Source: Escherichia phage PhiR41_1. Taken from it: a stretch of 64,000 nucleotides of DNA. Shown piece after piece: positions 1 through 2,641 of this stretch. The DNA lies in sequence record PV340561, one strand, 5' to 3'. The notes under the pieces were generated by a model that was not told the DNA's origin, searched no databases, and saw nothing but the letters and a program-made list of their open reading frames with translations. Position numbers and translations under genes: made by a program. The first letter of the stretch is position 1; each line of letters begins with the position of its first letter.

Positions 1-121
1 TCACTGCCCAGCCTGGCTTTCCCGACATAAAATCCTTTTTCGCCTTTGTCTTATTGCGATAATAACACCAACAAGTAAACAGCATATTTAGACGTTATAG
101 AAACGAAGTGAGGATGAAGAG

Positions 122-340
122 ATGATTAAGATGCCTGTGACGGTTGAGGTGTGGGGCGTGGATTCCCTGGCTGAGTGTCTGGATGCAGTGGGGCCGGAGT
201 TGTACCGCAAGTTGTGGTCGTTCGTCCCGGCAGAAGGGGAATCGCCCAAAGGGAAGGATATCTGGCACCTGCTGAGTGAAGATGAAAAGCGGGAGCTGGT
301 TGGCGCGGTACACAGCGAGTTCCCGGACGACCAAGATTAA
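122..340 (+). CDS. hypothetical small protein (72 aa)
   Basis: ORF with purine-rich RBS upstream of ATG; hairpin + T-tract terminator directly downstream (345-370); conserved upstream element at 69-90. Confidence 0.45.
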   Translation: MIKMPVTVEVWGVDSLAECLDAVGPELYRKLWSFVPAEGESPKGKDIWHLLSEDEKRELVGAVHSEFPDDQD

Positions 341-344
341 GAGT

Positions 345-370
345 GAGGCCACCAGCACGGTGGCTTTTGT
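345..370 (+). terminator. putative intrinsic terminator
   Basis: stem GCCACC/GGTGGC with loop agcac followed by TTTTGT. Confidence 0.5.
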
Positions 371-413
371 CGCTATTAACCTCCGGGGCAGCGCAGCACC
401 GTAACGATATACT

Positions 414-809
414 TTGTGGCCGTTTTCTTACTGGTATTGTTTACGTAATTCAGAAAACAACATGTTTAAGGATTGCTTTATGTTTGCAAATATCGACATC
501 AACCAAATTAAGAAATTGACTCAAAAAGAGTTTGACCAGTTTTATGAGCTGGAAGGTTGGTCTTCCACTCTGATTAATTCAATATGGGTGCTGGAGCTGA
601 TGACTCGTGATGACGCACCTGCTTTGATGATTTGCGACATGGGTGAAGATGCTGACTTTATGGATATGAGCGAATTTTGTGTGGACACATACAACCGCAG
701 CCAGAAGTACTACTTCACATGCGATAGTGAAAATGACGTGATTTCTAAGGTCTATCTTCACCTCGTCCAGCATTGGGACGTTCAGGAGTTTCTTGAGGTA
801 TTCGCGTAA
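414..809 (+). CDS. hypothetical protein (start probably ATG 462 or ATG 480)
   Basis: ORF-track frame; in-frame ATGs at 462 and 480, the latter with AAGGA RBS 8 nt upstream; terminator at 818-846. Confidence 0.45.
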   Translation: MWPFSYWYCLRNSENNMFKDCFMFANIDINQIKKLTQKEFDQFYELEGWSSTLINSIWVLELMTRDDAPALMICDMGEDADFMDMSEFCVDTYNRSQKYYFTCDSENDVISKVYLHLVQHWDVQEFLEVFA

Positions 810-817
810 TCCCAACC

Positions 818-846
818 AAAGCCAGCATTGCTGGCTTAATTTCTCT
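818..846 (+). terminator. putative intrinsic terminator
   Basis: stem AGCCAGCA/TGCTGGCT then TAATTTCTCT. Confidence 0.5.
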
Positions 847-932
847 ATAGCCGCAGGGAAGAACCTGCATATCGCTCATGCACCTGATCAATATGCTTTG
901 TAGCCGTTTTCTTACTGGTATTATTTACGCCA

Positions 933-1274
933 TTGAGAAAACAAGTTGTTTACGGAGTTGTGATGAAAAAATCATTGGTTCTTGGTCTGGACAAAGACCA
1001 GAAGAGAAAAGAGAAGCCTGCGCTGGTTGCTCAATTAACTTTGCTGGACATCGTTGCCAATGGAACCTCTATTCGTCTGTTCCGTGAAACAGCGGTGTCT
1101 TTCGATAAAAACACCTTTACTCGTTATGTAATGAATGTTCGTCGCCAGCGTGGAAAAGGCTGGATGGCATTTCAAAGAATGTGGCCGGAACATCAGCTCG
1201 AACTGGCTTTGATGGAAGTTAACCGCGTGGCCCAGCAAGAGATTCAGAGAGCATCAGTGATGGCAATAGCCTGA
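933..1274 (+). CDS. hypothetical protein (start probably ATG 963, MKKSLVLG...)
   Basis: ORF; ACGGAG RBS before ATG 963; upstream palindromic element 935-954; terminator 1309-1340. Confidence 0.5.
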   Translation: MRKQVVYGVVMKKSLVLGLDKDQKRKEKPALVAQLTLLDIVANGTSIRLFRETAVSFDKNTFTRYVMNVRRQRGKGWMAFQRMWPEHQLELALMEVNRVAQQEIQRASVMAIA

Positions 1275-1308
1275 TAATGTGCAAGTGGTAATTAGTCGAC
1301 AGTACGAC

Positions 1309-1340
1309 AGCCCCGCCATCCTTACGGGGTTTTTTTTTGT
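1309..1340 (+). terminator. putative intrinsic terminator
   Basis: CCCCG...CGGGG stem followed by run of 9 T. Confidence 0.6.
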
Positions 1341-1390
1341 ATTGTAAGTACATACCTATGTCTATAAAATAGAAAAATAACCAAGACACT

Positions 1391-1798
1391 ATGGAGAGTG
1401 ATATGAGCGTTAAACGAGAAAACCTGACAGTTGATGTCTACTATGCTTCAGAAAGCGCCGAAGGTAAGAATGTAGCTAAAATCACCGTCGTTACGTACAA
1501 CACCGAAACTGGAACTGAAGTTCAGGCAAGTACTATTGTGCGTAAAGGAGATACATCAGGCGGGGAATATGAGGCGCAATATCAGTCCATTTTTGATGCA
1601 ACGGACCCGTTGTTGTTGAAAATTGAAAGTTACTTCCGTAAGGTGAATAAAGAGGTGTTTGAAACCATGATGAATATGGTTAACACCGTATTCGCTTCCA
1701 GTCTGAACACTAACACTACCTGGATTGGTCAGTATGGTCTGCGCATTACCTCCGGCATTCCTGCTGACACCTTAATCCCTGAAAGCGTATTCGCTTAA
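1391..1798 (+). CDS. hypothetical protein (135 aa)
   Basis: ORF followed by terminator hairpin GGCGCG/CGCGCC + ATTTTCTT at 1808-1838. Confidence 0.5.
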   Translation: MESDMSVKRENLTVDVYYASESAEGKNVAKITVVTYNTETGTEVQASTIVRKGDTSGGEYEAQYQSIFDATDPLLLKIESYFRKVNKEVFETMMNMVNTVFASSLNTNTTWIGQYGLRITSGIPADTLIPESVFA

Positions 1799-1807
1799 TC
1801 CTCTTTG

Positions 1808-1838
1808 AATGGCGCGTAAACCGCGCCATTTTCTTATG
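1808..1838 (+). terminator. putative intrinsic terminator
   Basis: stem GGCGCG-taaac-CGCGCC followed by ATTTTCTT. Confidence 0.55.
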
Positions 1839-1916
1839 CCCGATAACAATTTGTTTTCTGCCTTATCTGATTTGTGAAAATGCTTTCACTGAAAGCAACT
1901 TGATAAGGAAACCATC

Positions 1917-2291
1917 ATGGGACTTGATATCTACATTGAGACGCAACCAAAAAACGATCTGAATAACGATGCATCCAGAAAGAAGGTTGCTTACTTCCGT
2001 AAGTTCAATGCTCTCTTTGGGTGGATGGAACGCAACGTAGGTGAAGTCAAAAATTGTGAGCTTTTAGAATTAACGATGAATGACATTTGTGCTCTGAAAG
2101 CTCATTTGATGCACATGAACGAAAGTAACTGCGAAGAGTACTTACCTACCTGTGAAGGTTTTTTCTTCGGCAGTCAGGAGTACGATGAAGGGTACTGGCA
2201 TGACGTGGGGGAGTTGAAAAAACTTGTGGAAGAGCTGATTAAGAACCACGACTTTCACAATAACAGACTGACCTTCTGCGCCTGGTGGTAA
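1917..2291 (+). CDS. hypothetical protein (124 aa)
   Basis: ORF with AAGGAAACC RBS region before ATG; upstream palindromic element 1845-1858. Confidence 0.5.
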   Translation: MGLDIYIETQPKNDLNNDASRKKVAYFRKFNALFGWMERNVGEVKNCELLELTMNDICALKAHLMHMNESNCEEYLPTCEGFFFGSQEYDEGYWHDVGELKKLVEELIKNHDFHNNRLTFCAWW

Positions 2292-2293
2292 AT

Positions 2294-2439
2294 ATGGGCG
2301 ATTTCAAGAAACGCCTGAAGGAAAGAGCCGAGATAGTCAGAAAGCAAAACGCCTCTTCTGTCATCAGATACGCAAGGCAGTTTAGTCGCAACAACAAATC
2401 AGTTGAGGAAAAGATCCTTAGCGTAATCGGTCGATAATT
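2294..2439 (+). CDS. possible very small ORF (about 48 aa, MGDFKKRLKERAEIV...)
   Basis: ATG immediately after stop of previous gene, read by eye; below ORF-track size cut-off; followed by palindrome 2443-2466. Confidence 0.25.
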
Positions 2440-2641
2440 ATTAAGGCCACCACTGCTGGTGGCCTTAAATGAACATCCTGTTTCCCGCAGGCTAAAAACA
2501 CCAACCTCTTACCTCCAGGCAACCGACAAACCCACCTGTTCCCGTCCGGCTACCGCAACTTTCCACTTTGATGCCTTATTCGTACAACGATAATTAACGC
2601 CAACAAGAAAACAATTTGTTATTTACGATAAGGAATTAATC

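Follow-up and report, generated by a model that had tools for sequence, protein, structure and literature searches.

In IncP plasmids, KorB, a member of the ParB family, recognizes OB, a 13-bp palindrome (TTTAGCSGCTAAA) with a free central base that is present in about 12 copies, some of them just upstream of a -35 element, and these OB sites tie the replication, partition and transfer operons into a plasmid-wide regulon. The CI and Cro proteins of lambdoid phages, dimeric proteins with a helix-turn-helix (HTH), bind odd-length palindromic operators that are clustered in the immunity region. Repressor C1 of phage P1 has 22 operators scattered round the genome (PMC8546580), and gp71, the repressor of mycobacteriophages L5 and L1, acts genome-wide at about 30 sites of 13 bp in short intergenic gaps, where it both represses promoters and stops elongation (PMC1934351). 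At the RNA level, Salmonella FljA acts post-transcriptionally on the fliC mRNA (PMC2652032). Here, we describe a 13-bp palindrome, AAACAA-N-TTGTTT (searched for as AAACAANTTGTTT), that recurs in a 64,000-nucleotide (nt) stretch of Escherichia phage PhiR41_1 (sequence record PV340561; hereafter, the window) and that is probably, though by no means certainly, the DNA operator of one regulator, presumably a repressor.

The palindrome has the geometry of OB, but its sequence is unrelated, and homologues of the two ParB-like genes of the window (10365-11731) are at background level in a lysogen (normalised counts of 5.0 and 9.5). With the lambdoid operators it shares the odd-length palindrome expected of a dimeric HTH protein, as well as an XRE-type gene adjoining the integrase gene; here, however, the copies are spread genome-wide and that region has none. 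The likeness to P1 lies in a phage that lives as a plasmid and in a single repressor acting at many dispersed operators next to promoters, which in P1 govern operons for replication, accessory functions and late control instead of a single immunity region. On the other hand, the P1 operator is an asymmetric 17-mer (ATTGCTCTAATAAATTT; PMC8546580) and the present site a symmetric 13-mer, and P1 has operators at c1 itself, whereas the control region of the XRE-type gene has none. No P1 C1 repressor was named among the 20 window proteins scanned with Pfam and the 18 scanned with PHROGs, neither of which was a search aimed at P1 C1. As we read it, the motif is a new example of dispersed-operator control in phage-plasmids, with the regulator known only as candidates: a promoter-anchored, strongly conserved site whose regulon would comprise about 20 promoters in the clinically widespread SSU5-type group. 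Such phage-plasmids occur frequently in clinical Enterobacteriaceae (the candidate regulator genes are present in about 800 PLSDB plasmids), and among them are Yersinia pestis pFra, in which the motif was found, and Salmonella Typhi plasmids. The lysis-lysogeny control of the group is essentially unstudied, and no described SSU5 or pHCM2 operator was found in the literature searched. A conserved operator provides a list of regulated transcription units, a bait for the regulator and a signature with which promoters and cargo cassettes can be annotated.

Recurrence of the palindrome and its position at putative promoters

Judged by its sequence, the window is 64 kb of an SSU5-type phage-plasmid. 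Escherichia phages Cyrano (93.7%) and CMS-2020a (96.7%) match its first 8 kb, as do, at a greater distance, Klebsiella relatives and Salmonella phage SSU5, and the genes fit this assignment: those for terminase, the structural module of a siphovirus, ParA, DnaB, primase, cobT- and cobS-like products, the alpha subunit of DNA polymerase III, an integrase and a regulator of the XRE type. Allowing for at most one mismatch, we found nine sites in the window, against 0.50 expected from dinucleotide shuffles, and none of 100 shuffles reached nine, which bears out the recurrence proposed in an earlier, sequence-only reading of this DNA. All nine are located in intergenic DNA, defined as the bases outside the gene set called in this analysis (6,270 bases, 9.8% of the window); for this AT-rich intergenic DNA alone, a composition-matched simulation predicts 0.077 sites. 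That reading had named an equal frequency inside coding sequence as grounds for dropping the idea, and the number of coding copies is zero. Every window copy precedes a rightward gene, with 11 to 65 nt between the end of the palindrome and the start codon, a wider range than the 10 to 40 bp first suggested. The copies connect the early small-gene cassettes to the operons of parA, dnaB, the cobT-like gene and the terminase/late genes, a link already surmised for the partition, replication and terminase operons.

Table 1. Copies of the palindrome and genes of candidate binders in the window. The nine sites with at most one mismatch begin at 455, 939, 1844, 2609, 13676, 13701, 41104, 44038 and 56651; aa, amino acids.
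Feature	Coordinates	Strand	Context
Degenerate copy AAACAGCATATTT, 3 mismatches	77..89	+	13 nt 3' of TGcGATAAT (55-63); same promoter family
Palindrome AAACAACATGTTT, 1 mismatch	455..467	+	+14 class; 14 nt 3' of extended -10 TGgTATTGT (432-440); ATG at 480
Perfect palindrome AAACAAGTTGTTT	939..951	+	+14 class; 14 nt 3' of TGgTATTAT (916-924); ATG at 963
Palindrome TAACAATTTGTTT, followed by TCT	1844..1856	-	-38 class; ends exactly 19 nt 5' of extended -10 TGtGAAAAT (1873-1881), which belongs to the gene at 1917
Palindrome AAACAATTTGTTA	2609..2621	+	+14 class; 14 nt 3' of GATAAT (2589-2594); ATG 2642 is 20 nt on
Double site, copy 1, AAACAAGTTGGTT	13676..13688	+	Leader of terminase/late operon; pair 25 bp apart, center to center
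Double site, copy 2, perfect	13701..13713	+	Abuts terminator-like hairpin
Perfect palindrome	41104..41116	+	35 nt 5' of parA (41152)
Perfect palindrome	44038..44050	+	19 nt 5' of dnaB (44070); 11 nt past the stop of the preceding gene
AAATAATTTGTTT, 1 mismatch	56651..56663	+	12 nt 3' of extended -10 TGcTACATT (56630-56638); before cobT-like gene (56683)
Left half-site only, AGAAAACAA	58867..58875	+	Fused to the ribosome-binding site of the gene at 58887
FljA-family protein (candidate 2, RNA level)	5192..5710	-	Pfam Flag1_repress PF03614, E 1.3e-68, full-length
Ribbon-helix-helix (RHH)-pattern protein, 92 aa (candidate 4)	8460..8738	-	RHH by sequence pattern
88-aa protein (candidate 3)	13290..13556	+	Winged-helix-like by sequence alone; gene immediately 5' of the double site
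XRE-type HTH protein, 128 aa (candidate 1)	55738..56124	-	Next to the integrase gene

Not all copies listed in the sequence-only reading were retained as such. The one placed at 69-90 does belong to the same TGcGATAAT cassette, with the same spacing, but its palindrome is degenerate; of the copy placed at 58867-58880, only the left half is present, while the one at 56651-56666, which had been called partial, proved to be a site with one mismatch. The extended similarity of about 60 bp between two neighboring promoter cassettes was confirmed (55 of 65 positions identical, or 85%, between 404-468 and 888-952), although the coordinates given for it were some 6 nt out of register on one side. Finally, the CAACAAG prefix taken to be part of the element turned out to be the spacer of one promoter family.

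To relate the palindrome to promoters, we pooled 68 sites from five elements and scored -10-like hexamers (A at position 2, T at position 6 and at least four of six matches; background, 1% per offset). In 26 of the 68 sites, such a hexamer, usually GATAAT or TATTAT and often preceded by TGn (i.e., an extended -10), is located 11 to 14 nt upstream of the palindrome, and in 13 others it follows the palindrome at a distance of exactly 19 nt, regardless of differences in the bases between, so that 39 of 68 stand at fixed distances from a -10-like hexamer. With the -10 placed at -12 to -7, the palindrome spans approximately +8 to +20 in the former group (center about +14; the +14 class) and approximately -44 to -32 in the latter (center about -38; the -38 class), in the opposite orientation. 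Several promoters carry both sites, 51 bp apart, and pairs with a 25-bp spacing are found in the terminase operon leader and in the equivalent region of a second conserved locus. This placement at fixed positions relative to promoters favors the operator half of the original suggestion (operator or promoter). The alternative half, along with an N4-type hairpin promoter, was rejected: at sites 455 and 939, only 12 and 11 nt, including the ribosome-binding site, separate the palindrome from the ATG, so transcription has to start upstream and the palindrome, which adjoins sigma-70-type extended -10 elements, is not the promoter itself. A consensus scan for canonical -35/-10 promoters returned none at the sites, because the promoters are of the extended -10 type. 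Ahead of parA, a possible promoter (TTTACA-17-TAGGCT) ends 15 nt upstream of the site.

The anatomy of the site is that of a symmetric element. Across the 68 sites, the central base is evenly distributed (C18, G18, T18, A14), AGA precedes the palindrome on the sense side in 38, TCT follows it in 10, and the two never occur together, which fits an ideal 19-bp palindrome, AGAAAACAA-N-TTGTTTTCT, of which each site would possess one good outer half. AGA, rather than the prefix mentioned above, is therefore the recurrent flank. L5 stoperators are asymmetric and strictly orientation-dependent, whereas the present sites have a perfectly palindromic core and two fixed positions relative to the -10; set against orientation of the L5 type, AGA is found on the sense side in those 38 sites and TCT on the other side in 10, and the sites at dnaB, nrdB and terS may lie inside transcripts. 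A different palindrome, GCTTTCAcTGAAAGC, is present at 1882-1896, in the early transcribed region of the promoter that has the motif at -38 (site 1844), and may be a second type of operator.

Published RNA sequencing of an LF82 lysogen covers every gene of Cyrano (supplementary data of PMC9928086). In these data, the median for the first gene after a site is 7.5 normalised counts, versus a plasmid-wide median of 9.8, and these low counts hold although many of these genes possess good extended -10 elements. Expression of parA (49.8) exceeds background, as does, weakly, that of dnaB (21.1) and CYRAN_111 (25.5), but that of no other such gene. Symmetric, promoter-proximal sites at which a bound protein would exclude RNA polymerase, in combination with target genes that are silent in the prophage state, are the grounds on which we regard the motif as a probable repressor operator. 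In such a scheme, one sequence-specific and probably dimeric regulator, encoded by the phage-plasmid, would bind the palindrome at about 20 promoters around the genome and, from the +14 or the -38 position, would block RNA polymerase. In the plasmid-prophage state, the early and accessory genes, dnaB, the cobT-like operon and the late (terminase) operon would thereby be kept off, while parA would be damped. We infer the promoter identity of the -10-like hexamers, the repression by a bound factor and the identity of that factor.

Several observations weigh against this scheme. The promoter positions are predicted from -10-like hexamers, and 29 of the 68 sites lack a recognizable -10 at the two canonical distances. 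Upstream of the terS pair, there is no -10-like hexamer within 9 to 16 nt, the only promoter-like match being about 70 nt away, so that this pair would act as roadblocks or as RNA elements; similarly, the sites at dnaB and nrdB are situated between genes that are possibly cotranscribed. The centers of the half-sites are separated by only about 9 bp, little room for a classical HTH dimer; the binder is represented by candidates only, and the XRE/cro-like control region has no copy; parA, finally, is expressed in the lysogen despite its perfect site. A stop of elongation, as in L5, could explain the sites in the terS leader and those between dnaB or nrdB and the genes upstream. In addition, a terminator-like hairpin (8 pairs) followed by a T-run (13714..13745, + strand) is located between the double site and the start of terS at 13754 and is conserved in Cyrano and SSU5; termination or antitermination may therefore add to the control of the late operon.

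Distribution among related elements

With at most one mismatch, the motif is present 18 times in the whole genome of Cyrano, 20 times in that of SSU5, 20 times in a Klebsiella plasmid, DS-1 (110,208 of 112,290 bp), 6 times in 20 kb of a Nissabacter-like element and 5 times in 40 kb of Y. pestis pFra (0.07 expected). Site positions were compared with a gene map for the window only; in the other elements, those copies whose surroundings were listed (Cyrano, SSU5, the Nissabacter-like element and DS-1) are apparently intergenic and ahead of rightward genes. The pair in the terminase leader is likewise present in Cyrano, SSU5 and pFra. Most proteins of the DS-1 lineage are 45 to 90% identical to those of the window. 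At the site upstream of dnaB, both arms are unchanged in 77 of the 79 readable relatives from IMG/VR (the other two have TTATTA for TTGTTT), while the central base is T, A or C and the 17 nt upstream have been rewritten; this pattern is a classical footprint. A scan of IMG/VR for a 15-mer gave mostly single chance matches among the matches listed.

The motif is essentially absent from Pectobacterium plasmid Drgb1 (NZ_KP942676; 108 kb, syntenic with SSU5), in which one site with one mismatch was found. Instead, GTAT-N8-ATAC is enriched in this plasmid (9 observed versus 1.55 expected), with only some of the copies close to promoters. A gene for Hfq is located directly upstream of dnaB in Drgb1, the place occupied by the palindrome in other elements. 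In Acinetobacter baumannii p1A9844 (NZ_CP102581), a distant SSU5-like phage-plasmid, the motif is not enriched either, but a dispersed palindrome of its own, AGTAAGCGCTTACT, is found 12 times in 40 kb, either between -35- and -10-like boxes or adjoining them. This plasmid also encodes a sigma factor of the sigma-70 family, adjoining a cobS-like gene. As distant, syntenic relatives carry other recurring palindromes, the design of one palindrome at many promoters is thus older than the motif sequence itself, and the replacement of the operator in Acinetobacter, and possibly in Pectobacterium, suggests a set of mutually exclusive immunity types that could be read from the sequence. An E. coli element has a second recurring upstream element, ATGTATGTAT...TTACTTA, before the genes ending at 18972, 15451, 7149 and 922; it resembles the GTATGTAT... 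palindromes of Drgb1 and may represent another regulatory family.

Candidate binders and competing explanations

Four products of the window were considered as binders (Table 1), and searches of PDB sequences with three of the candidate proteins returned nothing significant. The foremost candidate, though unproven, is the XRE-type protein encoded next to the integrase gene. In the Cyrano lysogen, its homologue is expressed (95.8), and homologues adjoining an integrase gene occur in 996 plasmids; approximately 790 of these matches are full-length and mostly in SSU5-like plasmids, and the remainder are chiefly partial matches in Acinetobacter. DS-1 has the same putative recognition helix, Drgb1 an altered one. 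A clean covariation between helix and motif had to be rejected, however, as the P0127 element reads YQNQVSF for NANNLSL and yet has a perfect site. Moreover, no site was found, even at up to two mismatches, in the control region of the XRE gene (56125-56371) or in the same region of Cyrano and DS-1, and the SSU5 phage record lacks the entire module that, in the plasmid forms, comprises the integrase, XRE and 70-aa genes (42525-42761, tRNA gene to cobT-like gene) but keeps its 20 motif copies. The earlier proposal that the XRE protein binds the motif is weakened by the empty control region and by the element that retains a perfect site with an altered helix. The intergenic region between the XRE and cro-like genes contains two repeats at 56290-56335, ATATGATATAGATAAG and ATTATGATATAAGAT; at the same place, DS-1 has different direct repeats (ATTTTAGTAAGTAACCACATA, twice), and these may be lineage-specific sites of the XRE protein.

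The RHH-pattern protein had been put forward alongside the XRE protein. Its DS-1 counterpart shares only 32% identity with it and has a different predicted DNA-reading strand (CQVAL versus CHLKL), while the motif is identical. The lysogen does express a homologue (114). An autoregulatory role for the motif-like sequence at 8713-8725 was rejected, as this sequence is not conserved in SSU5 or in the Nissabacter-like element and is therefore a chance match. The most conserved candidate is the 88-aa protein (78% identical in DS-1, 59 to 99% across 798 plasmids).

The FljA-family protein raises an explanation at the RNA level, which we consider rather unlikely, namely that it binds the motif in mRNA 5' leaders, before the ribosome-binding site, and blocks translation, as Salmonella FljA does at the fliC leader. 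The protein is a full-length member of its Pfam family and is predicted by modeling to consist of two tandem Hfq-like domains and to bind RNA (no link between FljA and the Sm/Hfq fold was found in the literature searched). Its gene is a core gene of the SSU5-like group, present in 835 plasmids, though these lack a flagellin gene; a homologue is expressed in the lysogen, and one is also present in Salmonella Typhi plasmids. Many sites abut the ribosome-binding site, left half-sites (AGAAAACAA) stand alone in leaders, and the fliC leader of Salmonella and Citrobacter shares CAAGTTGT just upstream of its ribosome-binding site. That resemblance, however, amounts to 8 contiguous bases in Salmonella (8 of 12 specified positions, not significant by itself), the E. 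coli fliC leader has no such site, and FljA has one known target. An RNA reader would also leave unexplained the 13 sites of the -38 class, which precede the promoter by exactly 19 nt and have the opposite orientation. The motif hairpin is not a stable RNA structure, having an energy of -0.7 kcal/mol (z, -0.96) and remaining unused in most leader folds, and Rfam 15 gave no match at the gathering score in the whole window. Variants of the motif are one-sided, with neither compensatory pairs nor a wobble bias, and in the DS-1 lineage the protein is only 35% identical while the motif is unchanged. Its distribution does not help to decide the matter; a tblastn search of Drgb1 was empty, but a profile search detected a very divergent homologue (E, 2.8e-12), so the apparent absence was rejected and there is no presence/absence signal. 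An extension of the same thought, according to which the protein would be a tandem Hfq-like ring repressing translation genome-wide, with the flagellar FljA-fliC pair as a domesticated, single-target offshoot, strikes us as unlikely.

Alternatively, the sites might serve a switch in the lytic phase, in which a small protein of the winged-helix type, either the 88-aa protein or a homologue of the 71-aa CYRAN_37, would bind the same palindrome, activate the -38 promoters and shut off the +14 promoters. The two position classes are indeed those used by position-dependent dual regulators, the 88-aa protein is encoded beside the double site, and CYRAN_37 has homologues in Cyrano, SSU5 and DS-1 and no hit in the motif-less Drgb1. 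Nevertheless, we hold this to be improbable: promoters with both a -38 and a +14 site make little sense for an activator-repressor, good extended -10 promoters are already silent in the lysogen, in which both proteins are at background (7.8 and 6.4), motif-less Drgb1 retains the helix predicted to serve for recognition in the 88-aa protein, and no CYRAN_37 homologue was found in the window. Least credible, in our view, is a site for a host factor, or a passive promoter or leader sequence spread by duplication of promoter cassettes. It would account for a motif that is invariant across Escherichia, Salmonella, Klebsiella, Yersinia and Nissabacter-like elements while the phage regulators diverge, and many sites do form one family of homologous cassettes. 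Against it, the motif is also found at nonhomologous promoters (cobT, parA and dnaB), where the palindrome alone is conserved, and syntenic relatives in Pectobacterium and Acinetobacter use other palindromes, as expected for an element-encoded partner. We know of no host regulator with this consensus.

Other features of the window

A chaperone-usher fimbrial cluster (49413-54107), encoding an Ig-like subunit, a PapD chaperone, a probable usher of 826 aa and an AraC-type regulator, adjoins the integrase gene at a position where Cyrano has tRNA genes and other genes, and it looks like inserted cargo. A gene for a GIY-YIG (LEM-3-like) nuclease (42232-42999, - strand), which lies on the opposite strand in the interval from the parA operon to dnaB, may encode a homing endonuclease.

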